A DNA stretch of 63,232 bases, from contig CAZFSA010000001.1 in NCBI GenBank assembly GCA_964521535.1, forward strand, positions 1-63,232, given 5' to 3'. The notes under the pieces are model-generated. The model was given only the letters and a program-made list of their open reading frames with translations, was not told the DNA's origin and ran no database searches. This document shows, one piece after another, positions 12,275 through 47,963 of this stretch. A program made the translations under genes and the position numbers. Numbering within the stretch: position 1 is the stretch's first letter; each line of letters opens with the position of its first letter. Source of the DNA: an uncultured Gemmatimonas sp. Its GTDB lineage: Bacteria; Gemmatimonadota; Gemmatimonadetes; Gemmatimonadales; GWC2-71-9.

Positions 12275-13162
12275 ATGGTCGGCATGCTGCGGGTCGACGG
12301 CCTTCATCACGTGTATCCCAACGGGACCCGGGCGCTGGAGGCGGTGTCGCTCGAGGTGGAGCCGGGCATGTTCGGGCTGCTCGGCCCGAACGGCGCGGGC
12401 AAGTCGACGCTGATGCGCTGCATCGCGACCTTGCAGGTGCCCACCTCGGGCTCCATCCGGTTCGACACCATCGACGTCCTCGCCGAGCCGGCCGCGCTGC
12501 GGCGGACGCTGGGCTACCTGCCGCAGGACTTCGGCGTCTACCAGCGCGTCTCCGCCTACGAGATGCTCGATCACATCGCCGTGCTCAAGGGCTACGGGGC
12601 GCGCGGGGAGCGCCGCGGGGTCGTCGAGACCCTGCTCCATCAGGTCAACCTCTGGGAGGTCCGGCACCGGGCGCTGGCCGGATTCTCCGGGGGCATGCGC
12701 CAGCGTTTCGGGATCGCCCAGGCCCTGATCGGCCAGCCCCGGCTCATCATCGTCGACGAGCCCACGGCCGGCCTCGATCCCGAGGAGCGGAACCGGTTCC
12801 TCAACCTCCTCGCGGAGATCGCCGAAAACACCGTCGTCATCCTGTCGACCCACATCGTCCAGGACGTGACCGACCTCTGCGATCGGACGGCGATCATCGT
12901 GGCCGGCCGGATCGTGCGCACCGGCGCGCCGCGGGACCTGGTCTCGGGGCTCGACGGCCGGATCTGGGAAAAGACGATCGCGAAGGGCGAGCTGGACTCA
13001 TATCGCCAGGCCTTCGACGTCATCGCGACCCGCCTCCTGGGCGGCAACACGGTCATTCACGTCTTCGCGGACACCGCGCCGGGCGACGGCTTCTCGGCCA
13101 CGGCCGGCAGTCTCGAGGACGTCTACTTCGCGACCCTCTCCTCCGAGCGCCGCGGCGGCTGA
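12275..13162 (+). CDS. ABC transporter ATP-binding protein
   Basis: Walker A GPNGAGKST, signature FSGGMRQR, Walker B LIIVDEPTAGLD. Confidence 0.92.
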   Translation: MVGMLRVDGLHHVYPNGTRALEAVSLEVEPGMFGLLGPNGAGKSTLMRCIATLQVPTSGSIRFDTIDVLAEPAALRRTLGYLPQDFGVYQRVSAYEMLDHIAVLKGYGARGERRGVVETLLHQVNLWEVRHRALAGFSGGMRQRFGIAQALIGQPRLIIVDEPTAGLDPEERNRFLNLLAEIAENTVVILSTHIVQDVTDLCDRTAIIVAGRIVRTGAPRDLVSGLDGRIWEKTIAKGELDSYRQAFDVIATRLLGGNTVIHVFADTAPGDGFSATAGSLEDVYFATLSSERRGG

Positions 13163-13171
13163 GGGGCCGAG

Positions 13172-16100
13172 ATGCTGAATCAGGTCGCGTGGTTCGAGGT
13201 CCGCTACCAGCTTCGGACGCCCGTCTTCTGGGTCACGAGCGCCATCTTCTTCGCGATGACGTTCTCCCTGGCCGTGTCGGACACCGTCCCGATCGGCTGG
13301 GGCGGCTACGTGGTCCGGAACTCGCCCTTTGCCGTCGGGCTCCTGTGCCTGACGATGAGCCTGTTCGCGGTCTTCATCCTCACCGCGTTCGTCTCCAACG
13401 TCGTCCTCCGGGACGACGAGACCGGGTTCGGCCCGATCGTCTGGGCCACCCCGCTCTCGAAGTTCGACTACCTCTTCGGCCGGTTCCTGGGAGCGTTCGG
13501 CGCCGGCGCCCTGGCCTTCCTGAGCGTCCCGCTCGCCGCCCTGATCGCCGTGTCGATGCCGTGGCTCGACCCCGAGACGGTCGGGCCGTTCCGTCCCGGC
13601 GCCTATCTCTACGCCTATCTGGTTCTCTGCCTGCCGACGCTGTTCGTGCTGGGCGCCGCGTTCTTCGCGCTGGCCACGGCGACGCGCTCGATGATGACCA
13701 CGTACGTCGTGGCGATCGTGGTGGTCCTCGCCTACATCCTGACGATCACGTCGCTGCGGAGACCGGAGCTGGCCCAGGTGGTGGCGCTCCTCGACCCGTT
13801 CGGCCTCTCGGCGTTCGGCGGCGTCACCCGGCACTGGACGCCGAGCGAGCGGAACACCCTGCTGACGCCGGTCACCGGGCCCCTGCTCCAGAACCGAGTC
13901 CTCTGGTTCTCGATCTCGTTCGCGCTCCTGGCGCTGGCGTGGCGCTCGTTCAACCGGCAGAGCCGCACCGAGCGCACCCGACCGGACCCGCGACCAGAGG
14001 CCAGTCCCCTGGCGTCGACGGCAGTCGCCCGGCCGGTGAGCCCGGTGGCCCTGCCGGCAGGCAACGCTCGGGCGCTCGGCTGGGGTCCGCTGGTTGCCCT
14101 GACCCGGTTCGACGTGCTGAGCGTCCTGCGCAGTCCCGCCTACGTGCTCCTCCTTGGAGTGGCCTTCCTGAACGCCGTGGTCGGGCTCTGGCTTGCGGGA
14201 GACGACCCGGTCAGCAACACGCTTCCGGTCACCCGGATCATGATCCAGACGCTGACCGAGCAGTTCACACTGATGCCGCTGCTCATCGCCGCGTACTATG
14301 CCGGCGAGCTGGTCTGGCGGGACCGGGAACGTCGGGTGCACGAGATCCTGGACGCGACCCCGTCCTCCGACTGGGCCTTTGTGGCGCCCAAGTTCATCGC
14401 CATCGCCATCGTCCTGCTCACGATGGCGCTCATCGTCGTCGGCGCTGCGGTGTCGGTGCAGGCCGTGAAAGGGTATGCCACCTTCGAGCTGGGCCGGTAC
14501 TTCGGTTGGTACGTTGTGCCCTGGGTGCTCGACCTGCTGATCTACGCGGCGCTGGCCGTCTTCATCCAGATGCTGGTTCCGCACAAGTATGGCGGCCTGC
14601 TGGTGATGGTACTGGTGCTGGCGGCCCAGTTGACGCTTGCCCGGTTCGGGTTGGAGCACAACCTGTACCGGTACGCCGGCTCCTCGGCGGTCCCGCTCTC
14701 GGACATGAACGGCCAGGGCGATTTCGCGCGACACGCGGCGTGGTTCCGCGGCTACTGGATCGCCGCCGCCACCATCCTCGCGGTCCTCGCCTGCCTGCTC
14801 TGGCGCCGCGGCGCCAGCTCGCCGCTCCGGTGGCGCCTGCAGCGGCTGCCTGCCCGCCTCAGGGGCCCGGCCGGTTGGACCCTGGGCGGGGCGACCCTGG
14901 CGATGGCCGGGCTGGGCGGGTTCATCTACTACAACACCCACGTCCTGAACGAGTACCGGACCTTCGTCGCGGGCGGTCGATGGGCGGCCGAGTACGAGAA
15001 GACCCTGCTGGGGTTCGAGAAGGTCCGGCAGCCCCACATCACGGACGTGAACCTGGCCATCGATCTCTACCCCACGAAGCCGAGGGTCGTGACCCGCGGC
15101 TCCTACGTGGTCGAGAACCGCACCGGGGCTCCCCTCGAGGAACTCCACGTCTTCTGGGCCCGCCAGCTCGAGCAACGACTCTTCCTGGGTCCCTTCGTCA
15201 TTGGTGAGCTTCAGATGCGCTCGCTGGAGGTGCAGGGCGCCCGACTGGCCCGCGAGTTTCCGGACTTCCACTACCGGATCTACCGATTCGACCAGCCGCT
15301 GGCCCCCGGGCAGCGAACCGAGATTCACTTCGAGACGGTTCGGGAGCAGCGTGGCTTTCGCAACACGAACAACGATGTCCGGGTGGTCGCCAACGGCACC
15401 TTCCTCGACAACTTCCAGATCGCGCCCTTCCTGGGCCCGTCGCGCTGGCCCACGCTCCAGGACCGGGCGCTCCGTCGCAAGTACGGTCTGCCGCCCGAGC
15501 TGCGGCCCCCACCCCTGGAGGATGACAGCGCCCGCGCCTTCCATTACTTCCGCCACGACAGCGACTGGGTCAACGCCGACCTCAGGATCTCCACGCTGGC
15601 AGACCAGGTCATTGTGGCTCCGGGCACGCTGGTGCATTCGGAGGTGGTGAACGGCCGGCGGGTGTCACACTTCCGGACCGATTCGCCGGTCCACAACTTC
15701 TTCTCGATCCAGTCCGCGCGGTACGCGGTCCGGGAGGACCGCTGGCGGGACGTCGCACTGGCGGTCTACTACCACCCGCTGCACGGGTTCAACGTGGATC
15801 GGATGGTTCAGGCGATGAAGGAGTCATTGGAATACTATTCCGAGCACTTCAGCCCGTACCAGTTCCGTCAGCTCCGCATCGTCGAGTTTCCCGCCTACCA
15901 CAATTTCGCGCAGGCCTTTCCGGGTACGATTGCCTATTCGGAGGCGGCCGGCTTCATCTTCGATTGCGCTGATGCGGACCGGATCGACTGCGTCACCTAC
16001 GTCACGGCGCACGAGACCGGGCATCAGTGGTGGGCGCATCAGGTGATCGGCGCCGACATGCAGGGTCAGACCGTGCTGTCCGAGACCCTGGCACAGTATT

Positions 16101-16801
16101 CGGCGCTCATGGTGATGGAGCGGAAGTACGGGCCCCAGGAGATCCGGCGGTTCCTCAAGCGCTCCCTCGATGGCTACCTCCGGGAGCGGGGGACCGACCG
16201 GATCGGCGAGGTGCCGCTCGAGCGGGTCGAGAACCAGGCCCACATCCGCTACCAGAAGGGCGGCATGGTGATGTATCTGCTCAAGGACGTGATGGGCGAA
16301 GCCGCCGTGAATCGCGCGCTCCGGTCGCTGCTGGCCGACTTCGCCTTCAGGGGCCCGCCCTATCCGACCTCGCGAGACCTAGTCCAGCGGCTCCGGGCCG
16401 AAGCGGGACCCGACCATCAGGAGCTGATCAGCGACCTCTTCGAGCGGATCACCCTGTACGACCTCAAGGTGGCGGGCAGCCGGGTGACGCAGACCCCTGA
16501 TGGCCGATGGAACGTTGCGATCGACGTCGACGCGGCCAAGTTCCACGCCGACGCCAAGGGTCGCCAGTCCCCGGCCCCGCTGGATGAACTGCTGGACATC
16601 GGGGTGTTCGCGGCGGAGCCGGGGGCGAAGGGGTTCGCCGCAGAGCACGTGCTGTCCCTCGATCGGCGGCGGGTGCACAGCGGGCGGCAGACCGTGACGA
16701 TCGTCGTGGATCGCGAACCCAGGTACGTCGGGATCGATCCCTACAACAAGTACGTCGATCGCAACTCCAACGACAATGTGATGCCGATCGGACGGCAATG
16801 A
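13172..16801 (+). CDS. ABC-2-type permease fused to M1-family aminopeptidase
   Basis: 1209 aa. The N-terminal roughly 550 aa have many hydrophobic helices. The C-terminal part has the zincin motif VTAHETGHQWWAH followed by LSETLAQY. Starts 9 nt after the ATPase gene. Confidence 0.9.
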   Translation: MLNQVAWFEVRYQLRTPVFWVTSAIFFAMTFSLAVSDTVPIGWGGYVVRNSPFAVGLLCLTMSLFAVFILTAFVSNVVLRDDETGFGPIVWATPLSKFDYLFGRFLGAFGAGALAFLSVPLAALIAVSMPWLDPETVGPFRPGAYLYAYLVLCLPTLFVLGAAFFALATATRSMMTTYVVAIVVVLAYILTITSLRRPELAQVVALLDPFGLSAFGGVTRHWTPSERNTLLTPVTGPLLQNRVLWFSISFALLALAWRSFNRQSRTERTRPDPRPEASPLASTAVARPVSPVALPAGNARALGWGPLVALTRFDVLSVLRSPAYVLLLGVAFLNAVVGLWLAGDDPVSNTLPVTRIMIQTLTEQFTLMPLLIAAYYAGELVWRDRERRVHEILDATPSSDWAFVAPKFIAIAIVLLTMALIVVGAAVSVQAVKGYATFELGRYFGWYVVPWVLDLLIYAALAVFIQMLVPHKYGGLLVMVLVLAAQLTLARFGLEHNLYRYAGSSAVPLSDMNGQGDFARHAAWFRGYWIAAATILAVLACLLWRRGASSPLRWRLQRLPARLRGPAGWTLGGATLAMAGLGGFIYYNTHVLNEYRTFVAGGRWAAEYEKTLLGFEKVRQPHITDVNLAIDLYPTKPRVVTRGSYVVENRTGAPLEELHVFWARQLEQRLFLGPFVIGELQMRSLEVQGARLAREFPDFHYRIYRFDQPLAPGQRTEIHFETVREQRGFRNTNNDVRVVANGTFLDNFQIAPFLGPSRWPTLQDRALRRKYGLPPELRPPPLEDDSARAFHYFRHDSDWVNADLRISTLADQVIVAPGTLVHSEVVNGRRVSHFRTDSPVHNFFSIQSARYAVREDRWRDVALAVYYHPLHGFNVDRMVQAMKESLEYYSEHFSPYQFRQLRIVEFPAYHNFAQAFPGTIAYSEAAGFIFDCADADRIDCVTYVTAHETGHQWWAHQVIGADMQGQTVLSETLAQYSALMVMERKYGPQEIRRFLKRSLDGYLRERGTDRIGEVPLERVENQAHIRYQKGGMVMYLLKDVMGEAAVNRALRSLLADFAFRGPPYPTSRDLVQRLRAEAGPDHQELISDLFERITLYDLKVAGSRVTQTPDGRWNVAIDVDAAKFHADAKGRQSPAPLDELLDIGVFAAEPGAKGFAAEHVLSLDRRRVHSGRQTVTIVVDREPRYVGIDPYNKYVDRNSNDNVMPIGRQ

Positions 16802-18549
16802 CAGGGCGACGGCGGCGGCGGGCCCCGGATCGGAGAATGACGGTGGCACAGACCCTCGATGGGAAGACGACAGAGGATCGCAAGGCGACGAACGCATCGG
16901 CTGATCTGGATGCCTGGCGGAGCACCACCCTCGCGGCCAGCGTGGCGAGGATGCCGGCGCGGAAGGAGGCCTTTACCACCCTGTCGGGTCTCCCGATCAA
17001 GGACCTCTACACCGCGGCGGACCTCGAGGGCATCGATCCCGCCCGGGACATCGGGTTCCCGGGTGAGCTGCCCTACACCCGCGGCGTCCACCCCACCATG
17101 TACCGGGCCCGCCCTTGGACCATCCGCCAGGTGGCCGGCTTCGGGACCGCCGAGGACACCAACGGTCGATACAAGTACCTGCTGGCGCACGGGGAAACCG
17201 GGCTCTCGACAGACTTCGACCTGCCGACCCTGCTGGGCCTCGACTCCGACCACCCGATGGCGGTTCCCGAAATCGGCAAGATCGGGGTCGCGGTCGACAC
17301 CCTGGAGGATGTCCGCATCCTGATGCAGGACATCCCCCTGGACCAGGTGTCGACCTCGTACACGATCAACGCGTCGGCCTTCGTGCTGATGGGGATGTAC
17401 GAGGTCGTGGCCAAGTCGCAGGGAGTGCGCGCCGAGCAGATCACCGGCACGATTCAGAACGACATCCTGAAGGAGTATACGGCACAGAACGAGTACATCT
17501 ATCCTCCTGCGCCTGCTGTCGGCCTCGTGGTCGACACCATGGAATACGCGGCCAGAATGATGCCGCGCTACAACCCCGTGAGTGTGTCCGGCTATCACAT
17601 CCGCGACGCCGGGTCGACGGCCGTCCAGGAGCTGGCCTTTACGCTTGCCGCCGGCCACTGCTACGTGACCGAGGCGGTCAAGCGCGGCCTGGACGCCGAC
17701 TTCGTGGCCCCGCGGATCTCGTACTTCTGGAACATCCAGAACGACTTCTTCGAGGAGATCTGCAAGCTTCGCGCGGCCCGCCGCCTCTGGGCGCGGATCA
17801 TGCGCGACTGGGTCGGCGCCAGGGACCCCCGGTCCTGGATGATGCGGGCCCACTGTCAGACGTCGGGCGTGAGCCTGACGGCCCAGCAGCCGGACAACAA
17901 CATCGCCCGGACGGCCATCCAGGCGCTGGCGGCCATCCTGGGCGGCACCCAGTCGCTCCATACCAACTCCAAGGACGAGGCGTTCCAGATCCCCTCCGAG
18001 GGCGCGATCAAGATCGCCGTCCGGACGCAGCAGATCCTCGCCCTGGAGAGCCGGGTTGCGGACGTGGTGGACCCCTTGGGCGGGTCCTACTACGTCGAGT
18101 CGCTCACCACCCGCCTGGAAGAAGAGGCGGAAGCGCTGATTCGCCAGGTGCTGGATCGGGGCGGCATGGTCCGGTCGATCGAGGACGGCTTCATTCAGCG
18201 GCAGATCGCCGACGCCTCCGCCGCGTACCAGCAGGCGGTGGAGTCGCACGCCGAGTACATCGTCGGAGTGAACATCCACGCCGAGCCCGAGGCGCCGTTG
18301 CCGTTCGAGACGTTCGTCCTCGATCCCGGGCTGGCCGAGCGCCAGATCGCGCGGACCCGGCGAATCCGGCAGTCGCGGTCCGAGGCCGAGGTTGGCGCCG
18401 CGCTCAGGGAGGTGGAGCAGGCGGCCCGCGGGGGACAGAACACGATGCCCGCGGTGGTTCGCGCGGTCCGGGCGCATGCGACCGTGGGCGAGATCTGCGA
18501 CGTCCTGCGCGGGGTCTTCGGCGAGTATCGGGCGCCGCTGGTCTACTGA
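16798..18549 (+). CDS. B12-dependent acyl-CoA mutase, large (catalytic) subunit, HCM/ICM-like
   Basis: YTRGVHPTMYRARPWTIRQVAGFGTAEDTNGRYKYLL...GLSTDFDLPTLLG...GTIQNDILKEYTAQNEYIYPP...SVSGYHIRDAG matches the methylmalonyl-CoA mutase family. ATG 16798 overlaps the upstream stop (ATGA). Alternative start ATG 16837. Confidence 0.9.
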   Translation: MTGRRRRRAPDRRMTVAQTLDGKTTEDRKATNASADLDAWRSTTLAASVARMPARKEAFTTLSGLPIKDLYTAADLEGIDPARDIGFPGELPYTRGVHPTMYRARPWTIRQVAGFGTAEDTNGRYKYLLAHGETGLSTDFDLPTLLGLDSDHPMAVPEIGKIGVAVDTLEDVRILMQDIPLDQVSTSYTINASAFVLMGMYEVVAKSQGVRAEQITGTIQNDILKEYTAQNEYIYPPAPAVGLVVDTMEYAARMMPRYNPVSVSGYHIRDAGSTAVQELAFTLAAGHCYVTEAVKRGLDADFVAPRISYFWNIQNDFFEEICKLRAARRLWARIMRDWVGARDPRSWMMRAHCQTSGVSLTAQQPDNNIARTAIQALAAILGGTQSLHTNSKDEAFQIPSEGAIKIAVRTQQILALESRVADVVDPLGGSYYVESLTTRLEEEAEALIRQVLDRGGMVRSIEDGFIQRQIADASAAYQQAVESHAEYIVGVNIHAEPEAPLPFETFVLDPGLAERQIARTRRIRQSRSEAEVGAALREVEQAARGGQNTMPAVVRAVRAHATVGEICDVLRGVFGEYRAPLVY

Positions 18550-18573
18550 TCGACACTGTCGGAGGCAAGGGCG

Positions 18574-18972
18574 ATGAAGCGTCCATTACGAGTGGTCGTC
18601 GCGAAGCCGGGACTGGACGGTCACGATCGCGGCGCGAAGATCATCGCGCGGGCCTTCCGGGACGCGGGAATGGAGGTGATCTACACCGGGATCTTTCAGA
18701 CGACCGAGATGATCACCCGGGCGGTGATCGAGGAGGATGCAGACGTCCTGGGCTTGAGCATTCTTTCGGGTACGCATCTCCACTTTGCCGACGAGATCGG
18801 CCGCGCCCTGCGGGAACAGGCCACGAGAGAAGTGCTCGTGATCATGGGCGGCACGGTGCCGCCCGCCGACATTCCGAAGGTGAAGGCGCTCGGGGTGGCC
18901 GAGGTGTTTGGCCCGGGCACGCCGACCGGAACCATCGTCGATTTCGTCCGCCGGTGGCACGCCGCCCGATGA
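18574..18972 (+). CDS. acyl-CoA mutase small subunit, cobalamin-binding domain
   Basis: 132 aa with the DxHxxG motif (LDGHDRGAKIIA) and SILSG...GG, typical of a B12-binding Rossmann domain. Confidence 0.9.
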   Translation: MKRPLRVVVAKPGLDGHDRGAKIIARAFRDAGMEVIYTGIFQTTEMITRAVIEEDADVLGLSILSGTHLHFADEIGRALREQATREVLVIMGGTVPPADIPKVKALGVAEVFGPGTPTGTIVDFVRRWHAAR

Positions 18973-20528
18973 CGCAGGCCGAGTATGGCGGCGCACCCCG
19001 CCTGGACGCGCTCCTGGCGCGGGCGGCGGCGACCGCCCCGGACCGGGAGGCGGTCGTGTTCGGCGGGCTCCGCTGGACCTACGCCCAGGTTCAGGACCGT
19101 GCCCGGCGGCTGGCCGGCGGGCTCAGGCGATGGGGTGTGTTGCCGGGCGATCGGGTCGCGCTCTGGGCGCCGAACCGGCCCGAATTCATGGAACTGTTCT
19201 TTGGCGTGCCACGGGCCGGCGCGGTCTTCGCGCCGCTCGACTGCTGGTGGAACTGGACCGACGCCCACGCCGCGCTGGAGCAGATCCGGCCACGGGTGCT
19301 GGTTCTCGGCCCCGCGCAGGCCGCCGCAGCGGCGGGGTCGCCGACCGCCCTGCGCGAGGTCGGAGTGGAGCAGGTGGTGTCGCTCGACGGGCCATGCGGC
19401 GGGCCCGCGCCGGGCTCGTATCAGGACCTGGTGGCCCGCTCCGAACCGCTCGACGCTCCGGTGCCCGTCGAGCCGGCAAGTGCGGCGCTGATCCTGTTCA
19501 CGTCCGGCTCGACCGGGCGATCGAAGGGGGCGGTCCATACCCACGACGGCCTGGTGACCACGGCCATGACGATGAGCGTGGAAGTGCCGTTCACCGACGG
19601 CGAACGGACTCTCCACTTTCTGCCGCTCTTCTCATCCTGCCTCGAGCACCTGCTGCCGCTCACGTTGCTCCGCGCGACCCACGTCATCCTCCCCCGGTTT
19701 GATTCGGAAGCGGTGTGGCAGACGGTGCGCGACGAACGGATCAGCCACTTCGATGCGGTCCCGACAACGCTCCGCCGCCTGCTGGACGCGCTGCCCGAGG
19801 AGATTCCCTCCTCGCTCAGATTGATCACCTACGCCTCCGAGCGCATGCCGAACGAGCTCATCAGAGCGCTGATCGAGCGCCTGCCAGGCGTCAGCTTCGT
19901 GCAGTTCTACGGGATGATCGAGCAGCTCTGCCTGACGGTCCTGGAGGCGCCGGACCAGCTCCGGAAGGTCGGAACCGTGGGACGGCCGATGCTCGGCGCC
20001 GAGCTCCGCCTGGTCGATGGAGCCGGCGAGCCCCCTGCCGCCGGCATTGCCGGCGAGATCCTGGCGCGCGGCCCGACCCTGTTCGCCGGCTACTGGAACG
20101 ACCCGCAGGCGACCGCCAACGTGGTGGGAGGCGGGTGGCTCCGAACCGGCGATCTCGGGCGGTTCGACCAGGACGGGTTCCTGGTGCTGGAGGGGCGGAT
20201 CAAGGAACTCATCAAGACCGGTGGGCTGACCGTGATCCCCGCGGAGATCGAAGCGATCCTGGCCGCGCATCCGGCGGTTCGCGAGGCGGCGGTGATCGGC
20301 GTGCCCGACCCGGAATGGGGAGAGTCGGTCCAGGCATTCGTCACGCTGAGACCGGACGGTTCCGTGAGCGACGGGGAGCTTGAGGCGTTCTGCCGGGAAC
20401 GACTCACCGGCTACAAGCGTCCCAAGGTCATTCACGTCGTCACCGATCTGCCGAGGACCGGCATCGGGAAGATCGCGCGCCGGGCGGTGCGCGACCGGGT
20501 CATGGCATCCGGGCAAGGCGGAGAGTGA
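18969..20528 (+). CDS. AMP-forming acyl-CoA synthetase/ligase
   Basis: The real gene is the 3' 520 codons of track ORF 17115..20528. ATG 18969 overlaps the upstream TGA (ATGA). Motifs LILFTSGSTGRSKG, YGMIE, TGDLG, GKIARR. Confidence 0.9.
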   Translation: MTQAEYGGAPRLDALLARAAATAPDREAVVFGGLRWTYAQVQDRARRLAGGLRRWGVLPGDRVALWAPNRPEFMELFFGVPRAGAVFAPLDCWWNWTDAHAALEQIRPRVLVLGPAQAAAAAGSPTALREVGVEQVVSLDGPCGGPAPGSYQDLVARSEPLDAPVPVEPASAALILFTSGSTGRSKGAVHTHDGLVTTAMTMSVEVPFTDGERTLHFLPLFSSCLEHLLPLTLLRATHVILPRFDSEAVWQTVRDERISHFDAVPTTLRRLLDALPEEIPSSLRLITYASERMPNELIRALIERLPGVSFVQFYGMIEQLCLTVLEAPDQLRKVGTVGRPMLGAELRLVDGAGEPPAAGIAGEILARGPTLFAGYWNDPQATANVVGGGWLRTGDLGRFDQDGFLVLEGRIKELIKTGGLTVIPAEIEAILAAHPAVREAAVIGVPDPEWGESVQAFVTLRPDGSVSDGELEAFCRERLTGYKRPKVIHVVTDLPRTGIGKIARRAVRDRVMASGQGGE

Positions 20529-20535
20529 GGGTGCG

Positions 20536-20919
20536 ATGGAGGGCACGATTCGAGTCCGGATGTCCACCGCCGACGGCCACTACGGCGGCGGCCTCGTGGC
20601 TGGCGCCAGGATCCTGGAGCTGTTCGGCGACGCTCTGACCGAGGCCCTGATCCGCCACGACGGCGACGAGGGACTGACCCGGACCCAGAACGCCGAGTTC
20701 CTCGCGCCGGTGCACTGCGGGGACTACCTCGAGGTCCGGGCGAGGCTGCTCTCGATCGGCAGGTCGTCGCGCCAGTTCGAGTGTACGGCGCACAAGCTGA
20801 TCGCGCTCCGGAGCCCGGACGACTCGGCCGCCGAGGTCCTCGCCGAGCCACTGCTGGTCGCCAGGGCGACGGGGGTCGCGGTGGTCCCGGTGCCAAAGCA
20901 ACGAGCATCGGAGCAATGA
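20536..20919 (+). CDS. hotdog-fold protein, 3-aminobutyryl-CoA ammonia-lyase-like
   Basis: 127 aa: MEGTIRVRMSTADGHYGGGLVAGARILELFGDALTEALIRHDGDEGL...EFLAPVHCGDYLEV. This resembles (from memory) Kal-type hotdog proteins. Family assignment unverified. Confidence 0.75.
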   Translation: MEGTIRVRMSTADGHYGGGLVAGARILELFGDALTEALIRHDGDEGLTRTQNAEFLAPVHCGDYLEVRARLLSIGRSSRQFECTAHKLIALRSPDDSAAEVLAEPLLVARATGVAVVPVPKQRASEQ

Positions 20920-21866
20920 CTGCGGTCGAGGAGCTGCTGGCCGGGGCCCGCGCCGGACGGATCGCCGCGACGGCCCGACTCCTCTCCATCGTCGAGAACC
21001 ACGATCCGGAGGTGGCGGACGTCGTGCGCGCAACCATGTCCCACGCCCCCCGCGCGGCCCGGATCGGCATCACCGGCCCGCCTGGGGCCGGCAAGAGCAC
21101 GCTGGTGTCCGCCCTGGTGGCAGCCTACCGGCGCACGGTCCCGCGGGTTGCCGTCGTCGCGGTCGATCCCTCCAGCCCGTACACCGGCGGCGCCATTCTT
21201 GGCGATCGGATCCGGATGCGCGACCGCGCGCTCGATCCCGGAGTCTACTTCCGCAGCATGTCGAACCGCGGCACCTCGGGCGGGCTCGCCAGGGCGACCC
21301 GGCGGATCGTCGACGTCCTGGACGCCGTCGGGTTCGACGTGATCCTGGTGGAGACGGTCGGCGCCGGGCAGCAGGAGGTCGACGTCGCGAGGGTCGCCGA
21401 TACGGTATGCCTGCTCGCCATTCCCGGCGCGGGCGACGACGTCCAGGCCATCAAGGCCGGGATCCTGGAGGTCGCGGACATCGTGGTGGTCAACAAGGCC
21501 GATCGCCCCGGCGCCGAGGAGACCGCCAGGGACCTGATCCACACTCTGAACCTCGGCGCTCCCCGTACCGACTGGAAGACGCCGGTCATCAGGACCTCGG
21601 CGATCGAGGGAGCCGGGATCGAGGACCTGGTCGCGGCGGTCGCCCGGCATCGCGAGTGGGCTATCGGATCGGGAGCGGCGCAACGTCGGCGCGCCGAGGG
21701 CATCCGGATCGAGCTGGAGGGGCTGATCCGGGAGCGGGTCCTGAGCGACCTCGCCCGCCGCATCGGCTCGGAGGCCCTGGATCTCGCGGTCTCGCGGGTG
21801 GTCGAACGGCAGCTCGACCCCTACGACGCAGTTGACCTGCTTCTGACAGGGAATTCATCCGAATGA
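20916..21866 (+). CDS. meaB: MeaB/ArgK-type G-protein chaperone for B12 mutases
   Basis: P-loop GITGPPGAGKST, VETVGAGQ, NKAD. ATG 20916 overlaps the upstream TGA (ATGA). Confidence 0.9.
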   Translation: MTAVEELLAGARAGRIAATARLLSIVENHDPEVADVVRATMSHAPRAARIGITGPPGAGKSTLVSALVAAYRRTVPRVAVVAVDPSSPYTGGAILGDRIRMRDRALDPGVYFRSMSNRGTSGGLARATRRIVDVLDAVGFDVILVETVGAGQQEVDVARVADTVCLLAIPGAGDDVQAIKAGILEVADIVVVNKADRPGAEETARDLIHTLNLGAPRTDWKTPVIRTSAIEGAGIEDLVAAVARHREWAIGSGAAQRRRAEGIRIELEGLIRERVLSDLARRIGSEALDLAVSRVVERQLDPYDAVDLLLTGNSSE

Positions 21867-21873
21867 GGCGCCC

Positions 21874-23799
21874 GTGATCCCTGATGCCGCCCCCCTGCGA
21901 ACCGTCGTTGCGAGACTGCTGCTCCTCGGCGTCGCTGCCGCTCCGGCCGCGGCCCAGACGCCACGGCCCCGGCCGTTCAACGACATCCCGGGGAACTTCG
22001 CGGTCCGCGTCCTCCCCGAGCAGGTCGTCAGGCGCGTGGTCATGATCCCGATGCGCGATGGCGTGAGGCTCCAGACGTTCATCATCGTCCCCAGGGGCGC
22101 GCAGGGCGCGGCCATGATTCTGGAGCGGACGCCCTACAATGCCGCGATCTTCGGGCGCAACCCGGCGGCGGACCCGCTGATCCAGGCCGGCTACATTCGC
22201 GTGTATCAGGACGTCCGCGGCAAGTACGGATCCGAGGGTGACTACGTCCTGACCCGTCCGGCCCGAGGCCCGCTGAATCCGACCGGCGTCGACCACTCGA
22301 CCGATGCCTGGGACACCATCGACTGGCTGGTGAAGCACGTCGCGGAGTCGAACGGGCGGGTCGGCATGATCGGCAGCTCGTACGACGGCTTTACGGCCGC
22401 GATGGCGCTGCTCGAGCCGCATCCCGCCTTACGGGCTGTCGTCCCCCAGGGGCCGGTGCTCGACGGGTGGATGGGTGACGACTGGTTCCACTACGGCGCC
22501 TTTCGCAACATGATGCTGGGCTACATCCACTCCCAGACCGCGCAGCGCGGATCGGGCGTGATCACGCCCAGCAATACCTATGACAAGTACGAGGAGTTCC
22601 TGCGCGCCGGTTCGACCGGCGACTACATCCGGGCCAACGGCCTCGACCAGCTCCCGTGGGTCGCCCGGACCATGGCCCACCCGGCGTACGATGCCTACTG
22701 GCAGGGACAGGCGGTCGACAAGCTGCTGGCGACTCGCCCGTCAGGGGTTCCCACGCTCTGGACTCAGGGCCTCTGGGATCAGGAGGACATGTACGGTGCG
22801 AACCACGCCTGGCGCGCCCTCAAGGCGGCCGGCCTCGAGGCCACGAACTGGCTGGTGCTGGGCCCCTGGAACCACGTTCAGGTCGGCGGCACCGGAGCGT
22901 CGCTCGGGCCCCTGGTCTGGGGCGAGGAGACGGCCAGCATCTACCGCCGGGACATGTTGCTTCCCTTCTTCAACGAGCATCTCCGCGGCGGCCCACCCGC
23001 CGGCCTGGCTCGGGCGGCGGTCTACAACACCGGGGAGAAACGCTGGGAGCGCTTTGCCACCTGGCCCACGGCCTGCGATCGCGGCTGTGCCACGCCGCTC
23101 ACGCCGCTCTATCTCGGCCCCGGGTTCAGCCTGTCGTTCGACGCTCCCACGCAGCCCGGCGGTGGCGACAGCTATACCAGCGATCCCGCCAGGCCAGTAC
23201 CCTTCCTCCCCCGCCCCGTCGTCGATCCCTTCGCCGAGCTTGGCGCCGGATCGCTCGGCAGCCCCTACGAGCCGTGGAGCAGGTGGCTGGTGCATGACCA
23301 GCGATTCGTGGAGGGCCGGCCCGACGTGCTCGTCTATGAAACGCCGGTTCTGACGGCCCCGGTGCGGGTGCAGGGCATTCCCATCGCCGAGATCCGCGCC
23401 CAGACCACGGGCACCGACCTGGATCTCGTGGTCAAGCTCATCGACGTCTACCCGAAGTACGATCCGGTCAACCCGGCGCTCAGCGGCTATCAGCTGCCGA
23501 TCGCGATGGACATCTTCCGCGGCCGCTACCGCGAGAGCTTCGAGCACCCGGCGGCGATCCCGCCGAATACCCCCCAACGGTTCCGGTTCGAACTGCCCAA
23601 CGTCAACCACGTCTTCAAGCCGGGACACCGGATCATGATCCAGATCCAGTCGACCCTCTTCCCGCTGTACGACCGGAATCCCCAGACCTTCGTGCCGAAC
23701 ATCTTCGATGCGAAACCGGAAGACTACCGCAAGGCCGAGATCACGATTCTGCGTTCCCGGGCGCAGGCCTCGGCGGTGCTGCTGCCGGTCGTGAACTGA
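21874..23799 (+). CDS. CocE/NonD family hydrolase (S15 Xaa-Pro dipeptidyl-peptidase-like), secreted
   Basis: 641 aa with a signal peptide and the nucleophile elbow GMIGSSYDG. The C-terminal beta-sandwich region (…FKPGHRIMIQIQSTLFPLYDRNPQ) is typical of the family. Confidence 0.88.
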   Translation: MIPDAAPLRTVVARLLLLGVAAAPAAAQTPRPRPFNDIPGNFAVRVLPEQVVRRVVMIPMRDGVRLQTFIIVPRGAQGAAMILERTPYNAAIFGRNPAADPLIQAGYIRVYQDVRGKYGSEGDYVLTRPARGPLNPTGVDHSTDAWDTIDWLVKHVAESNGRVGMIGSSYDGFTAAMALLEPHPALRAVVPQGPVLDGWMGDDWFHYGAFRNMMLGYIHSQTAQRGSGVITPSNTYDKYEEFLRAGSTGDYIRANGLDQLPWVARTMAHPAYDAYWQGQAVDKLLATRPSGVPTLWTQGLWDQEDMYGANHAWRALKAAGLEATNWLVLGPWNHVQVGGTGASLGPLVWGEETASIYRRDMLLPFFNEHLRGGPPAGLARAAVYNTGEKRWERFATWPTACDRGCATPLTPLYLGPGFSLSFDAPTQPGGGDSYTSDPARPVPFLPRPVVDPFAELGAGSLGSPYEPWSRWLVHDQRFVEGRPDVLVYETPVLTAPVRVQGIPIAEIRAQTTGTDLDLVVKLIDVYPKYDPVNPALSGYQLPIAMDIFRGRYRESFEHPAAIPPNTPQRFRFELPNVNHVFKPGHRIMIQIQSTLFPLYDRNPQTFVPNIFDAKPEDYRKAEITILRSRAQASAVLLPVVN

Positions 23800-23811: not shown

Positions 23812-24726
23812 TCAGCGGGGCTGCTCGGCCTTCTTGCGAAGGTGCCGGGCGATCCCGTACCAGCTGGCCTTGAAGTCGGAGAAGGCCGCCGACGCCGCGA
23901 TGGCGTCCGGCGACGCCTTGTCGGCAAGCCAGCCGGAGACCCAATCATGAAACGCTGCCGCCCGTTCTGAATCCGGTCCCGCGGCGTCCAGGAAGCGCTC
24001 GGCGGCCTCGGTCCAGTCCCGAAGCCCCTGCCGCAGCTGGGCGAAATGGACGCCAAGCCTGTCGGAGAACCCGAAATGGGTGGAAAACACCCGGCGCGGC
24101 TTCCAGGCCTCCACCGCGTCGAGGCTGGCCAGCCACTTCTCCGGATCGAAATCGGGCGGCGGTGTGACCGGGATGGCATAGGGCAGCGCCGGTACCCGGA
24201 TGCCGCCCACGTCGCCGACGTACGCCGTCTCGTCGGCGCGTTCGAAGTAGGCGACGTGATGGGACGCGTGCCCCGGGGTGTAGAGTACCTCGAACGACCG
24301 ACCGCCAAGCGAGAGGTGCTCGCCCCCCGTGAGCGGGCGTACCTGGGCGGCCGGTACCGGGAGAAACGGGCCCCAGAGGTAGTCCATCTGGTCGCCGAAG
24401 ACCTGGGTGGCGCTTGCCAGGAGCTTGGTCGGGTCGATCAGGTGCGGCGCGCCGCGTTCGTGAACGTAGACCGGAAGTCCGGGATGCTCGGCGCAGACGA
24501 GGCCGATCGCCCCCGCGTGATCGAAGTGGATGTGCGACAGCAGGACGGCGTGGAGGTCGGTGACCCGAAGGCCCAGAGACGCGAGGCCGGAGTGGAGATT
24601 GGCGAGAGTGGAGCCCGGACCGGTGTCGATCAGAACGGGCCCGGCGGCCGTGCGCAGGACCCGCGACGCGACGTAGCCTTCGCGACCCAGGTGTCGGAGA
24701 TCGATGGTTGCATCGGTCATGGGCAC
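23812..24726 (-). CDS. MBL-fold metallo-hydrolase
   Basis: HxHxDH motif (LSHIHFDHAG), 304 aa. Confidence 0.88.
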   Translation of the reverse strand: MPMTDATIDLRHLGREGYVASRVLRTAAGPVLIDTGPGSTLANLHSGLASLGLRVTDLHAVLLSHIHFDHAGAIGLVCAEHPGLPVYVHERGAPHLIDPTKLLASATQVFGDQMDYLWGPFLPVPAAQVRPLTGGEHLSLGGRSFEVLYTPGHASHHVAYFERADETAYVGDVGGIRVPALPYAIPVTPPPDFDPEKWLASLDAVEAWKPRRVFSTHFGFSDRLGVHFAQLRQGLRDWTEAAERFLDAAGPDSERAAAFHDWVSGWLADKASPDAIAASAAFSDFKASWYGIARHLRKKAEQPR

Positions 24727-24766: not shown

Positions 24767-26419
24767 TCATCTCCGGACCAACCGGGCGTCCATCAGGACC
24801 CAGTTGTTCGGATCGAGGACGATCCGTGCGGGGGCAAACCCCACGGGAATCCTGAACTCGTTCCGTCGGCGATCCACCTGTACCCGGTGCAGGACCGGCT
24901 TCCCCTCCGCAGGGTAGATCGCGACCTCGACCGGCATCGTAAACAGGCTCCCGTCCTCCTGCACCTGCTCGAGGCCGAGGACCACTTCCCGCCTCGCCGT
25001 ATCGTAGCGCCAGGTCCCGCTGAGCTGCAGCGCACCCGGCCGGTACAGCCATTGCTCGAAGAACTCCTTCAAATCCAGGCCGGATGCCTCCTCCATCTCC
25101 TGCCGGAAGTCCGTCGTCGTGGCATTCCCGTTCAGGTACTTTCGATAGTACGACCGGATTCCCTTCCAGAAATGCTCCGTCCCGACCACGCCGCGCAGCA
25201 TGTGCAGGACCCACGCGCCCTTCTGATAGGTGTGCGAACTCGTGACCTGGCTCATGTCCTTCAGGTTGTCGTGCACGATCCGATACTGCGGGTTCCGTTC
25301 GTGGAACGCCATGACGACCTTCCGGCTCTCGGCGAGTCCCGCCTGGAAGGCGTCCTGCCCGTAGGCGTGCTCGATGAACAGCAGCGTGAAGTAGGTCGCG
25401 AATCCCTCGCTGAGCCAGACATCGTCCCAGTCGTACTCGGTCACGGCGTTCCCGAACCATTGGTGAGCGATCTCGTGGATCACCACGTTCCGCCAGCGTT
25501 CGTTCCGGTCGCCCACCACCGCGTTCTCGCTGTAGAGGATCGCCGACGCCGCCTCCATCCCGCCGCTGACGCTGTTCGACTGGATGTTGGCCAGCTTCTC
25601 GTAGGCGAACGGTCCGACATGGCTGCTGTAGAACTCCAGCACCTGCCTGGTCGGCACCGCAAAATCGTGGAAGCCGGCGTCGCGGTCCTGGTAGTACACC
25701 CAGGTTTCGATCGACGTGTGGTCGAATCGGTCCACGTACTGCACCGCGAACCTGGCCACGCCAAGGACATACAGCCAGGAGGCGATCGGCACCGACTGCC
25801 TCCAGTGTGTCAGCCTCATCCCCCCAGGCAGATCGGTTTGCTCGATCCTCAACCCGTTCGAGACCACCTGGTAGTGAGCGGGCGCGGTGACGATGAACTC
25901 GCAGGTTGCCTTGTCGTACGGGTGATCGACGATCGGCAGCCAGTGCCGGCCCTTGTCCGGCCAGTTGTCGCTGAAGAAGGTCCGGTCGCCATGCTTGTTC
26001 GGGGCGATCTTGAGACCCGAAGCGGGCACCCCGGAGTAGGTGATCACGTAGCTCCCGCGCTGGCCGCGCCGGGACGGCGCCGGCAGCGTGATTCGGAGTT
26101 CCTCTCCTTCGTGGACAAAGGACAGGGCCTGGCCGTCGGACTCGACCCTGGCCACCGTCATTCCCCTTCCGCCGAGCGAGGGCGAGGCCTTCACGAGGTC
26201 GAGCCGCAGAACGGCCACGCCGTCCCCGCGGTAGCGGACCTCGACCGTCGCCTCGGCGTCGATGGCGTCGGCGCGATCGGAGAGCGTGATCCGAAAGACA
26301 TAGTTCAGGACATCGATGTTTGGGTTCTTGGGGTACTCGTCTCCCCAGGCCGAGACCGGAAGCGACAGCGCCAGAACGAGCGCGGGCAGCGTTCGCATGA
26401 GACTAGCGGCGGGCGGCAA
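24767..26419 (-). CDS. M1 family aminopeptidase, secreted
   Basis: Signal peptide, HEIAHQWFGN-x-WLSEGFATY (HExxH-x18-E), and an upstream GGMEA exopeptidase-like motif. Confidence 0.9.
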   Translation of the reverse strand: MPPAASLMRTLPALVLALSLPVSAWGDEYPKNPNIDVLNYVFRITLSDRADAIDAEATVEVRYRGDGVAVLRLDLVKASPSLGGRGMTVARVESDGQALSFVHEGEELRITLPAPSRRGQRGSYVITYSGVPASGLKIAPNKHGDRTFFSDNWPDKGRHWLPIVDHPYDKATCEFIVTAPAHYQVVSNGLRIEQTDLPGGMRLTHWRQSVPIASWLYVLGVARFAVQYVDRFDHTSIETWVYYQDRDAGFHDFAVPTRQVLEFYSSHVGPFAYEKLANIQSNSVSGGMEAASAILYSENAVVGDRNERWRNVVIHEIAHQWFGNAVTEYDWDDVWLSEGFATYFTLLFIEHAYGQDAFQAGLAESRKVVMAFHERNPQYRIVHDNLKDMSQVTSSHTYQKGAWVLHMLRGVVGTEHFWKGIRSYYRKYLNGNATTTDFRQEMEEASGLDLKEFFEQWLYRPGALQLSGTWRYDTARREVVLGLEQVQEDGSLFTMPVEVAIYPAEGKPVLHRVQVDRRRNEFRIPVGFAPARIVLDPNNWVLMDARLVRR

Positions 26420-27851: not shown

Positions 27852-28195
27852 GATGGCACCGGAACGCGCGACGGGTCTCGGCAACGAGACCGACACAGGA
27901 TGGAAGATGGCTCCTTGCCGGCCCAGCATCCGGGCATCAGAAGTGGGGATCGGCACCTCGATCGGCCGGCGCAAGGGACGAGGGGCAAGGTACGGGCAGC
28001 CGGCGGGGCCGTCCAGACCGCCCCGGGGGAGCCAGCCCGAGGGCGGATCGGACGCACCAATGCGCCGACCAGGCCGTCGCTCCGCGGTAGCGAGCGGGGT
28101 GGCGGCACTACAGCAGTCGCCGTACCTTGGCTCGACCGGGAGTTCGAGCCCTCGCGGCTCGCGGCCACGGACGTGTCCTTCCAGGAGCCTCGCCA

Positions 28196-28975
28196 ATGCA
28201 TCGCACGCTCGTCGCCGTCGCGTTGGCAGTCGCCGCCTCCGCCTGCCGCCCGGCCGGGCCGCCGCCGGCCAAGCCGCCGGCCGAGGCCCAGGTCCCGGTC
28301 ATCGGCAAGACCGAGGTCCGGAGCCTCCGATCGAACATCGTGGCCCAGGAGTATCGACTGTTCATTGCCCACCCCTCGCCAGCCGGGCCGCCGGGCACGA
28401 AGTATCCGGTCGTCGCGCCGATCGCGCGGTCGGGTGGGGCCCCGGCCTTCCTTCGCTTCATTCGCGAGGAGCTGAAGCCCTTCGTCGACTCGACCCTCCC
28501 CGTCGATCCGGGCAACGCCACGCTCATCGGGCACTCGTTCGGAGGCCTCTTCGCGACCTACGTGCTGCTGCACCATCCGGACACCTTCCAGCGGTACGTC
28601 ATCGGCAGCCCCTCGATCTGGTGGCATGGGCGGGTGTCGTTCGAGTTCGAGAAGGCGTACGCGGCGGCGAACCGCGATCTCCCCGCGCGGGTGTTTGTCG
28701 CGGCGGGCGGGCTCGAGACGGCGGAGGAATTCAAACGGACCGCGTCCCAGTTCCCCGAATCGATGCAGGCAGCGATCGCCGAGTGGGAACGAACGACGGG
28801 CCCGCCCCAGATGGTCGAACTGATCGGCCCGTTCGAGCGGGCGCTCAGGGGGCGTCGCTACCCGGGCCTCTCGCTGACGACCCACATCTACCCGGGCGAG
28901 ACCCACACGTCGGTGTTGCCCGGATTGATCGCCCGCGGGCTCAGGGTGGTGTTCGGGACGTACAGCGGGGGCTGA
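28196..28975 (+). CDS. alpha/beta hydrolase (putative esterase family) lipoprotein
   Basis: ATG 28196 gives MHRTLVAVALAVAASAC|RP (lipobox). Nucleophile elbow GHSFGG and the following ...YVIGSPSIWW are typical of IroE/esterase-D-like proteins. Confidence 0.8.
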   Translation: MHRTLVAVALAVAASACRPAGPPPAKPPAEAQVPVIGKTEVRSLRSNIVAQEYRLFIAHPSPAGPPGTKYPVVAPIARSGGAPAFLRFIREELKPFVDSTLPVDPGNATLIGHSFGGLFATYVLLHHPDTFQRYVIGSPSIWWHGRVSFEFEKAYAAANRDLPARVFVAAGGLETAEEFKRTASQFPESMQAAIAEWERTTGPPQMVELIGPFERALRGRRYPGLSLTTHIYPGETHTSVLPGLIARGLRVVFGTYSGG

Positions 28976-34240: not shown

Positions 34241-34467
34241 GTGAGGGACGTGACGAAAGCGCAGAGGGCCACGAAACGGAACGGCGCCAGGCAGAGCCAC
34301 CTGGCGGGCTCCCCTTTCTACCGTCCGGGAGGCGGGTTGTCAACACAGCAGTCGGCAGGGAGCATGGCCGGCGGACGGGACGGCGTCTTGTCGGTCGCCC
34401 CGGAAGCTTGTACTTTGTCTCGCAAAGTGCCGCGTCACCTCGACCGCGGTCCTGCCTGGAGCTGCCG

Positions 34468-47269: not shown

Positions 47270-47349
47270 GAGCTAACAACCGGTTGCAGCGGACGGTCCA
47301 CTGCGCGGCCCGCCGCTGAACCGGAGCGTTATGTCACAAGGAACACTGC

Positions 47350-47892: not shown

Positions 47893-47963
47893 GCTGAGCA
47901 GCCGGGGACCCGGCTGACACAGGACCGGGGAGATGGGTAACACGCTTCTCCCTAGGGAAGTGG

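Follow-up and report, generated by a model that had tools for sequence, protein, structure and literature searches.

Gene Content of the Locus

The window studied here is a 63,232-nucleotide (nt) stretch of contig CAZFSA010000001.1 from an uncultured Gemmatimonas sp. (G+C ~70%), and the system in question is a set of five genes, all on the + strand, encoding a split B12-dependent acyl-CoA mutase together with a CoA ligase, a small hotdog protein and a mutase chaperone. The large mutase subunit (mutL; 16798-18549, +; PF01642, 694 bits) reads as 583 amino acids (aa) in its longest open reading frame (ORF), with the true start likely at ATG 16837 or GTG 16843. The B12-binding small subunit follows (mutS; 18574-18972, +; 132 aa; PF02310; TIGR00640, 153 bits) and carries the DxHxxG motif as DGHDRG. 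Next come an AMP-forming acyl-CoA ligase (18969-20528, +; 519 aa; PF00501 and PF13193) and a hotdog protein (20536-20919, +; 127 aa; PF03061) that resembles Kal, the 3-aminobutyryl-CoA ammonia-lyase, and scores 135.3 bits on the Kal equivalog model NF052388, under the curated cutoff of 160. The last gene encodes MeaB, the G-protein chaperone of such mutases (20916-21866, +; 316 aa; TIGR00750, 329 bits against a cutoff of 241), with a GPPGAGKST P-loop and NKAD as its NKxD motif.

An earlier reading made from the letters alone (hereafter, the sequence-only reading) had described these five co-directional genes, with the same families and coordinates, and had placed ATGA stop/start overlaps at 18969 and 20916; genes and overlaps are all present. 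A third ATGA overlap, at 16798, joins the stop of an upstream peptidase gene to the ATG of the mutase ORF. Public annotation files cluster proteins under “methylmalonyl-CoA mutase family” and “hotdog domain-containing.”

Mutase Pocket and Phylogeny

Among solved structures, the large subunit best matches HcmA, the large subunit of 2-hydroxyisobutyryl-CoA mutase (HCM; 4r3u, 605 bits), followed by human methylmalonyl-CoA mutase (MCM; 468 bits), Propionibacterium shermanii MCM (434 bits) and the isobutyryl-CoA mutase (ICM) fusion IcmF (235 bits). The pocket strings WTIRQ-V-AGF, GLST-D-FDLPT and KEYTA-Q-NEYIYPP, which the sequence-only reading had aligned by eye with 27 residues between Val and Asp, are in the protein. 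Alignment to 4r3u and with MAFFT puts their central residues, Val112/Asp139/Gln230 in the 583-aa ORF (codons 17131-17133, 17212-17214, and 17485-17487), on HcmA Ile90/Asp117/Gln208 with identical spacing (27 and 118 residues). At the positions of MCM Tyr89 and Arg207 (P. shermanii numbering), which bind the substrate carboxylate, the window mutase has Val and Gln instead, and in place of the ICM triad Phe/Ala/Gln it reads Val/Asp/Gln. By these residues the pocket is HCM-like, and not MCM- or ICM-like.

Val/Asp/Gln is invariant in nine sequences of the clade that holds the window protein (A-type; the window protein and eight further members) and in five sequences of a second clade (B-type), while HcmA of M. 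petroleiphilum PM1 and X. autotrophicus Py2 have Ile/Asp/Gln, a Deinococcus plasmid homologue has the ICM-type Phe/Ala/Gln, and E. coli ScpA and homologues from Desulfobulbaceae, Nitrospirota and Acidimicrobiia have the MCM-type Tyr/Ala/Arg. Just two alignment columns set all 14 A- and B-type sequences apart from three Ile/Asp/Gln sequences, namely 90 (Val vs. Ile) and 114 (Leu vs. Ile), and both sit at the pocket. In a tally of the 150 best mutase-family representatives (from a 50%-identity representative search that returned no Val/Asp/Gln representative and was used for the tally only), 78 were Tyr/Ala/Arg, 15 Phe/Ala/Gln and two Ile/Asp/Gln, so that Asp117 is rare. Many further, uncharacterised triads among these representatives (e.g., VVV, IIE, VDM, QDH, QDP, and RDW) hint at additional acyl-CoA mutase specificities.

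A-type proteins (Gemmatimonadota, Steroidobacteraceae, Ramlibacter, Bradyrhizobium, Pseudaminobacter) share 80–86% identity with one another and 48–50% with HcmA of PM1 and Py2; their small subunits are 80–87% identical across related loci. B-type proteins share 57% identity with HcmA and 47–48% with the A-type. In a neighbour-joining tree, made without RcmA, PCM and ECM references, the A-type forms its own clade and it is the B-type, not the A-type, that is sister to HcmA. The sequence-only reading had taken the cluster for an HCM-type mutase system rather than an MCM. This label survives in part: the HCM-like pocket and the best solved match stand, but at 48–50% identity and with Val for Ile90 the mutase falls, on this tree, outside the characterised HcmA clade. 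We propose that it acts as a 2-aminoisobutyryl-CoA (more broadly, a 2,2-dialkylglycyl-CoA) mutase.

A Kal-Like Hotdog Protein

The hotdog protein matches Kal models alone among NCBIfam families. It is 52.7% identical to Kal of Fusobacterium vincentii (196.6 bits on NF052388), where kal is followed by kce, kdd, kamA, kamB, kamC, kamD, and kamE, each above its own cutoff, and 50.4% identical to Kal of Acetoanaerobium noterae. Its sole significant relative by sequence in the PDB is the beta-alanyl-CoA ammonia-lyase Acl2 (E = 3.6e-16; 35% identity), and the window protein, five clade members, two Kal proteins and Acl2 have 31 invariant residues in common. Pfam places the protein in the 4HBT thioesterases (PF03061). 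An AlphaFold (AF2) model (pLDDT 88.6) finds Acl (4mtu) as its first Foldseek match (TM 0.91, rmsd 1.6 Å), and thioesterases reach at most TM 0.76. The resemblance to Kal noticed from the letters alone is thus borne out by family models, by identity to a true Kal and by predicted fold, and we propose that the protein is a (S)-3-aminobutyryl-CoA ammonia-lyase.

A stray fragment of lysine fermentation was considered and rejected, the kam, kdd and kce genes all being absent. As had been claimed, tblastn with the Fusobacterium genes found no homologue of kce, kdd, kamA, kamD, or kamE across the window, and no kam, kdd or kce gene was seen in the related loci with annotated flanking genes.

Kal homologues on plasmids occur in other contexts only. 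More distant Kal-like proteins (43–47% identical) lie on plasmids of Rhizobium gallicum (L087) and Streptomyces sp. S501 (L088), in a mini-cluster with a type III pyridoxal phosphate (PLP) enzyme, an adenylating enzyme, a carrier protein and an ectoine-synthase-like protein; on the R. gallicum plasmid the PLP enzyme is fused to the hotdog domain. This mini-cluster looks like a small biosynthetic pathway unrelated to the mutase cluster.

The Acyl-CoA Ligase

The ligase is of the FadD/feruloyl-CoA-synthetase type, with a feruloyl/fatty-acyl-CoA synthetase (8weu, 276 bits) as its best PDB match. The same PDB search returned no entry at E < 1e-40 for HCL, the PaaK-like ligase of 2-hydroxyisobutyrate (2-HIBA) degraders, and to judge by these matches the window ligase is not of that kind. 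The sequence-only reading had likened the cluster to the Aquincola 2-HIBA locus; the architecture supports the likeness, the ligase does not.

Across 29 family ligases (60–69% identical to the window ligase) the motif FSSC(L/M/I)EH is invariant, where fatty-acyl-CoA synthetases have F-H. We looked at the A4 motif for the Asp by which nonribosomal peptide synthetase-like domains bind an alpha-amino group and found a Ser there instead; the invariant Glu four residues past that Ser is only suggestive. We propose that the enzyme is a 2-aminoisobutyrate (Aib)-CoA ligase. A second AMP-binding ligase gene in the window (32705-34300, -) encodes a protein that shares only 34% identity with the cluster ligase and has no FSSCLEH motif.

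Conservation of the Cluster Across Phyla

Related loci were collected by look-ups seeded on the hotdog protein and by a mutase-seeded scan of one genome per species, and the two seeds returned the same gene arrangement. The order mutL-mutS-lig-kal-meaB occurs in 21 of the 23 high-identity genome loci whose downstream flanks are complete; its carriers belong to Gemmatimonadota and to Alpha-, Beta-, and Gammaproteobacteria (Steroidobacteraceae, Ramlibacter, Bradyrhizobium, Pseudaminobacter), and the two exceptions (L018 and L023) have enoyl-CoA hydratase (ECH) or M19 dipeptidase genes after mutS. Because the order recurs in 21 of 23 independent loci, the five-gene arrangement is not due to chance, and the neighbourhood of mutase, Kal-like protein and ligase that the sequence-only reading had singled out extends to other genomes. 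Ligase and Kal are kept together in 22 of 25 A-type loci.

In Peristeroidobacter soli JW-3 (L001 and L022, contiguous, ~40 kb), A-type and B-type mutase/ligase/Kal sets lie side by side, the B-type set with its own Kal copy. Around them are genes for a TonB-receptor, S9, S8, M19, M20 and S15 family proteins, an ABC2-M1 fusion, 3-hydroxyacyl-CoA dehydrogenase (3HCDH), a thiamine pyrophosphate (TPP)-dependent lyase, an adenosyltransferase and a permease, as well as a dgdR-like gene. The two sets may serve two related substrates, e.g., Aib and isovaline.

Association With Dialkylglycine Genes

A LysR-type regulator adjoins the operon in 13 of the 25 loci and shares 56–62% full-length identity with a Burkholderia cenocepacia LysR encoded divergently from dgdA, 49 nt upstream of it. 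A LysR gene divergent from dgdA is in the position of DgdR (Keller et al., 1990, as cited in PMC10169451). In related loci that have the DgdR-like LysR and no dgdA, the regulator lies directly upstream of mutL and is divergent from it. Three A-type loci of Gemmatimonadales (3 of 25) have a class-III aminotransferase gene as a neighbour, and at 706 bits to PDB 1d7r (next family, 217) its product is unambiguously assigned by sequence to 2,2-dialkylglycine decarboxylase (DGD; DgdA). The substrate of DGD is Aib, a soil amino acid that comes largely from peptaibols (PMC10169451; PMC7782822).

The same association recurs with the B-type mutases, which at 84% identity or more are found in cultured Mesorhizobium, Labrys, Sphingosinicella, Aminobacter, and Pseudaminobacter, in Roseobacteraceae and on a plasmid of S. 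meliloti. Their operon consists of a dgdR-like LysR gene followed by genes for DgdA (666 bits to 1d7r), the small mutase subunit, MeaB, the large subunit, ECH and a ligase. Each of the four B-type operons examined contains dgdA (L083-L086: Mesorhizobium, a Roseobacteraceae genome, Sphingosinicella rhizophila and S. meliloti LMB1 plasmid pB). The B-type ligase belongs to another ANL subfamily and is 28% identical to the window ligase; Hcl of PM1 had no tblastn match in these four loci.

A Predicted Pathway for 2-Aminoisobutyrate

Taken together, these observations lead us to regard the cluster as probably a catabolic pathway for Aib, in which a CoA-ester mutase and an ammonia-lyase would convert Aib-CoA to (S)-3-aminobutyryl-CoA and then to crotonyl-CoA, with other 2,2-dialkylglycines such as isovaline perhaps also accepted. 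We infer each substrate and reaction from gene content, pocket residues, family assignments, synteny and the dgdR/dgdA association, all of which are computational observations. The chemical core of the argument is short. Kal converts (S)-3-aminobutyryl-CoA to crotonyl-CoA and ammonium, and the reaction of an HCM-type mutase links 2-X-isobutyryl-CoA with (S)-3-X-butyryl-CoA in both directions; the metabolite shared by the two can only be 3-aminobutyryl-CoA, and therefore X would be NH2. The stereochemistry matches as well, in that EC 4.3.1.14 acts on L-, i.e., (S)-, 3-aminobutyryl-CoA and the HCM product is also (S).

In the proposed sequence of events, peptidases encoded in and around the operon (the ABC2-M1 fusion, the S15 hydrolase resembling alpha-amino acid ester hydrolases, and M1 and M24 enzymes) would free Aib, probably from Aib-rich peptides such as fungal peptaibols. 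The AMP-forming ligase would convert Aib to 2-aminoisobutyryl-CoA, and the split adenosylcobalamin (AdoCbl) mutase, its cofactor loaded and protected by MeaB, would move the carbonyl of the thioester off C2 and onto a methyl carbon to give (S)-3-aminobutyryl-CoA, with the conserved Asp predicted to hold the substrate amino group where HCM holds the hydroxyl. The Kal-like enzyme would then eliminate ammonia to form crotonyl-CoA, from which ordinary beta-oxidation would yield two molecules of acetyl-CoA, ECH and 3HCDH leading to acetoacetyl-CoA; genes for both flank several related loci. Such a route would suit its substrate: because Aib has no alpha-hydrogen, neither transamination nor oxidative deamination is available, and moving the amine to the beta position, beside an acidic alpha-CH2, would make a thioester-assisted elimination possible.

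Two other assignments were rejected, a beta-aminobutyrate catabolic cluster, which leaves the mutase without a role, and Aib biosynthesis, since the ligase, peptidases, permeases and catabolic regulator point to degradation.

A wider version of the proposal takes in the whole 12275-23799 block as a locus for the use of peptaibols or other peptides that contain Aib, whose peptidases would free Aib for a novel AdoCbl-dependent alpha-aminoacyl-CoA carbon-skeleton mutase leading to crotonyl-CoA. We put this forward tentatively, as a possibility that we would not yet favour. If true, such a DgdR-controlled utilisation locus would occur widely among soil Gemmatimonadota, Steroidobacteraceae and rhizobia and would constitute a third, carbon-conserving Aib route.

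Points Against the Proposal and Alternative Readings

Several observations weigh against an Aib pathway. The window itself contains none of dgdR, dgdA, ECH, 3HCDH, adenosyltransferase or amino-acid permease genes, and because dgdR and dgdA are missing from it, the link to Aib rests on orthologous loci. To this must be added the sub-cutoff score of the hotdog protein on the Kal model. Alpha-aminoacyl-CoA thioesters are generally labile, we know of no Aib-CoA ligase, and the hydroxyl-binding role of HcmA Asp117, on which the analogy for the amino group draws, is one that the residue reportedly has. The rhizobial B-type operons, with the same Val/Asp/Gln pocket, contain no Kal gene and have ECH and DgdA genes instead; either the amine is removed otherwise in these operons (perhaps by the co-operonic ECH) or the pocket alone does not specify an amino substrate. 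Finally, a TPP enzyme encoded next to four mutase clusters (4 of 25 loci; L001:14540-16252, -; L029:8143-9876, +; L026 and L014) is a close homologue of actinobacterial 2-hydroxyisobutyryl-CoA lyase (7pt1, 457 bits; next, 218), and its presence in four related loci keeps a hydroxy-acyl-CoA or acetone-formylation reading alive.

The strongest alternative, which we nevertheless consider unlikely, is that the mutase is a genuine 2-hydroxyisobutyryl-CoA mutase of 2-HIBA degradation, with a ligase that activates 2-HIBA and a hotdog protein that serves as a 3-hydroxybutyryl-CoA dehydratase or proofreading thioesterase. HcmA is the best solved relative, Asp and Gln are kept at 117 and 208, and with its mutase, ligase and MeaB the locus is built much like the hcm clusters of PM1 and Py2; one JGI record even labels a B-type protein as 2-hydroxyisobutanoyl-CoA mutase, and both the lyase homologue of the four loci and the 4HBT filing of the hotdog protein would fit. 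Against this, the ligase is not of the HCL type, the regulator of related loci is a DgdR-type LysR and not a GntR, the mutase is only 48–50% identical to HcmA with Val for Ile90, and the hotdog protein is 50–53% identical to true Kal and retains the residues invariant in Kal and Acl. Moreover, a hydroxy route needs neither a lyase nor an ECH, as (S)-3-hydroxybutyryl-CoA would pass straight to a dehydrogenase, as in the PM1 cluster, and 2-HIBA leaves the DgdA, amino-acid permease and peptidase neighbours unexplained. The sequence-only reading had offered a ligase–mutase–lyase route for either Aib or 2-HIBA. The clustering of DgdR, DgdA, permeases and peptidases with the operons speaks for the first substrate; the second now appears disfavoured.

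It is also improbable, in our estimate, that the chemistry proposed for Aib is right and the substrate wrong, i.e., that the cluster acts on isovaline or another alpha,alpha-disubstituted amino acid, or interconverts alanyl-CoA and beta-alanyl-CoA for an Acl-type elimination to acryloyl-CoA. Among solved structures a beta-alanyl-CoA ammonia-lyase is indeed closest to the hotdog protein, but the protein's identity to Kal (50–53%) is well above that to Acl2 (35%), crotonyl-CoA as a C4 product agrees with the ECH and 3HCDH neighbours, and alanine needs no such pathway. Also in favour of another substrate, Val for Ile at position 90 enlarges the pocket, the two paralogous mutase/ligase/Kal sets of P. 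soli suggest two related substrates, and DGD and its reported regulation respond to isovaline too (PMC10169451). The DgdR/DgdA association, on the other side, speaks for dialkylglycines, the commonest of which is Aib.

Acetone salvage we think very improbable. Here DgdA would convert Aib to acetone, the TPP lyase would join acetone with formyl-CoA to give 2-hydroxyisobutyryl-CoA, and the mutase would produce 3-hydroxybutyryl-CoA, as proposed for Desulfococcus biacutus. dgdA does share operons with B-type mutases and lies near three A-type clusters, the homologue of the actinobacterial lyase is present in four loci, a TPP-binding protein (known by annotation, not by comparison with 7pt1) follows the PM1 hcm cluster, and the formylation route is in the literature (PMC7176365; PMC7888143). 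The window, however, has neither dgdA nor the TPP lyase; dgdA is missing from 22 of 25 A-type loci and the lyase from 21 of 25, yet ligase and Kal are kept in 22 of 25. Acetone salvage also gives no role to the Kal-like protein or the ligase, and no source of formyl-CoA is encoded. Last, despite the public annotation as methylmalonyl-CoA mutase family, we dismiss an ordinary MCM or ICM set beside unrelated genes, a reading opposed by pocket residues (no MCM Tyr89/Arg207, no ICM Phe, and Asp at 117) and at odds with the cross-phylum gene order and overlapping stop/start codons.

Flanking Genes and Other Features of the Window

The co-directional block reaches past the five genes at 16798-21866 to cover 12275-23799 (11.5 kb). 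Upstream, an ABC transporter ATPase gene (12275-13162, +; PF00005), probably the first of an extended operon, ends 9 nt before a gene for a 1209-aa protein that joins an ABC-2 membrane domain and an M1 metallopeptidase (ABC2-M1 fusion; 13172-16801, +; PF12698, PF12679, and PF01433), whose stop overlaps the mutase ORF as described above. Downstream, 7 nt after the meaB stop, lies a gene for an S15-family hydrolase close to alpha-amino acid ester hydrolases (AEH; 21874-23799, +; PDB 2b4k, 733 bits), probably the last of the operon. A scan of 10-25 kb for promoters and terminators gave nothing beyond shuffled expectation. Beyond the block and on the opposite strand are genes for a metallo-beta-lactamase (MBL)-fold protein (23812-24726, -; PF00753), an M1 aminopeptidase in these peptidase-rich surroundings (24767-26419, -; PF01433 and PF17900) and an M24 Xaa-Pro aminopeptidase of the aminopeptidase P type (26403-28196, -; PF00557 and PF05195), the last with a true start probably downstream of its longest-ORF start.

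To count neighbours, all adjoining ORFs of the 25 loci were clustered and representatives annotated. The most frequent families, apart from the LysR regulator (13 of 25), are the S15 hydrolase (16), the ABC ATPase (15), the M19 dipeptidase (12) and the ABC2-M1 fusion (11). Two families of amino-acid permeases adjoin 8 and 3 loci, a PduO-type adenosyltransferase 8, the MBL-fold protein 6, an amidohydrolase 5, 3HCDH 4, and ECH, an S9 peptidase and an amidase 3 each; S8, M20, and TonB-receptor genes also occur around related loci. In the three Gemmatimonadales loci with dgdA, the MBL-fold gene lies between the S15 gene and dgdR-dgdA. The pair of ABC ATPase and ~1200-aa ABC2-M1 fusion recurs in L005, L007, L012, L013, L019, L021, L022, L024, L026, L065, and L085 (Sphingosinicella), and we propose that the fusion processes or imports peptides. 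To our knowledge the natural role of AEH is unclear; the linkage of the S15/AEH gene to the mutase suggests that the hydrolase frees N-terminal alpha-amino acids, e.g., Aib, from peptides or esters.

Elsewhere in the window, G+C falls to ~0.60 (vs. ~0.70 elsewhere) at ~46000-48500, a region that holds an integrase-core fragment ORF (rve_3; 47515-48480, -) and is probably an insertion sequence remnant. A SAM-II riboswitch (55854-55927, +; RF00521, “Alpha-proteobacteria SAM riboswitch”; 47.2 bits vs. a gathering score of 36) directly precedes a gene for B12-dependent methionine synthase (metH; 55944-59672), in a genome whose cluster genes have their closest relatives in Gemmatimonadota.

Significance of a Possible Third Route for 2-Aminoisobutyrate

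Aib, plentiful in the peptaibol antibiotics of fungi and also brought in by meteorites, lacks an alpha-hydrogen and for that reason withstands the usual routes of amino-acid breakdown. Two bacterial routes have been described, through DGD and through the AibH monooxygenase (PMC7782822). If the pathway predicted here is correct, bacteria would have a third solution, one that combines CoA activation, a B12-dependent mutase and an ammonia-lyase, and an alpha-amino-substituted substrate would join the known specificities of acyl-CoA mutases (MCM, ICM, ECM, HCM/RCM, and PCM). It would also explain a large cross-phylum set of “methylmalonyl-CoA mutase family” proteins and the existence of Kal homologues outside lysine fermenters, suggest natural functions for AEH-type hydrolases and ABC2-M1 fusions, and provide enzymes with which alpha,alpha-dialkyl and beta-amino acids could be synthesised or broken down. 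As carriers are in culture (Pseudaminobacter salicylatoxidans DSM 6986, Steroidobacter flavus and Peristeroidobacter soli JW-3 for the A-type; many Mesorhizobium and Sinorhizobium strains for the B-type), the prediction is directly testable.

The sequence-only reading was not aware of any description of such a route, and the literature that we searched yielded none. A full-text search for 2-aminoisobutyryl-CoA or aminoisobutyryl-CoA found no papers, combinations of Aib, mutase, 3-aminobutyryl-CoA and related terms returned nothing relevant, and none of the 12 top-ranked papers for dialkylglycine, mutase and MeaB contained the word dialkylglycine.

Comparison With Known Systems

The closest characterised system is HcmAB with HCL and MeaH (Aquincola tertiaricarbonis L108, M. 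petroleiphilum PM1, X. autotrophicus Py2). Both systems place a MeaB-type chaperone and a dedicated CoA ligase in the same operon as a split AdoCbl mutase, both have Asp and Gln in the pocket at the spacing of Asp117 and Gln208, and the reaction predicted for the window mutase is the 1,2-shift of HCM, from a 2-substituted isobutyryl-CoA to a (S)-3-substituted butyryl-CoA. They differ in that the window mutase is 48–50% identical and belongs to a separate clade, with Val for Ile90 and Leu for Ile114. Gene order differs as well, the hcm clusters of PM1 and Py2 reading GntR, then hcmB-hcl-meaH-hcmA, against mutL-mutS-lig-kal-meaB here. Where hcm clusters have a PaaK-type ligase, a GntR regulator and no hotdog gene, the present cluster has a FadD-type ligase and a Kal-like gene, with a DgdR-like LysR in related loci; its neighbours are peptidase and amino-acid genes, and the predicted substituent is NH3+ rather than OH.

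With Kal (EC 4.3.1.14) and Acl2 (4mtu) the hotdog protein shares a length of ~127 aa and 50–53 and 35% identity, respectively, and its predicted reaction is that of Kal. Unlike Kal, it falls below the model cutoff and comes from Proteobacteria and Gemmatimonadota of soil and rhizosphere that are not known to ferment lysine; kamA, kamDE, kdd, and kce are missing from its vicinity, and it is paired with a carbon-skeleton mutase where Kal has aminomutases.

Systems that act on Aib itself resemble the cluster in predicted substrate and differ in chemistry. DgdA and DgdR of Burkholderia cepacia share with it the predicted substrates Aib and isovaline, DgdR orthologs flank 13 related loci, and dgdA lies in or beside several operons; DgdA, however, uses PLP to turn Aib into acetone by decarboxylation and transamination. 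The route predicted here would instead proceed by CoA activation, a B12-dependent shift and ammonia elimination and would keep all four carbons. Until the AibH monooxygenase was discovered, no enzyme other than DGD was known to use Aib (PMC7782822). That monooxygenase (AibH1H2), from Rhodococcus wratislaviensis C31-06, is likewise encoded in a dedicated, inducible Aib cluster that includes an amino-acid permease, but its route is O2-dependent and passes from Aib through alpha-methyl-D-serine and aminomethylmalonate to L-alanine with neither CoA esters nor B12 (PMC7782822). Each enzyme family of the present cluster is a known one; what would be new is the predicted substrate class and the pathway that these families appear to form together.

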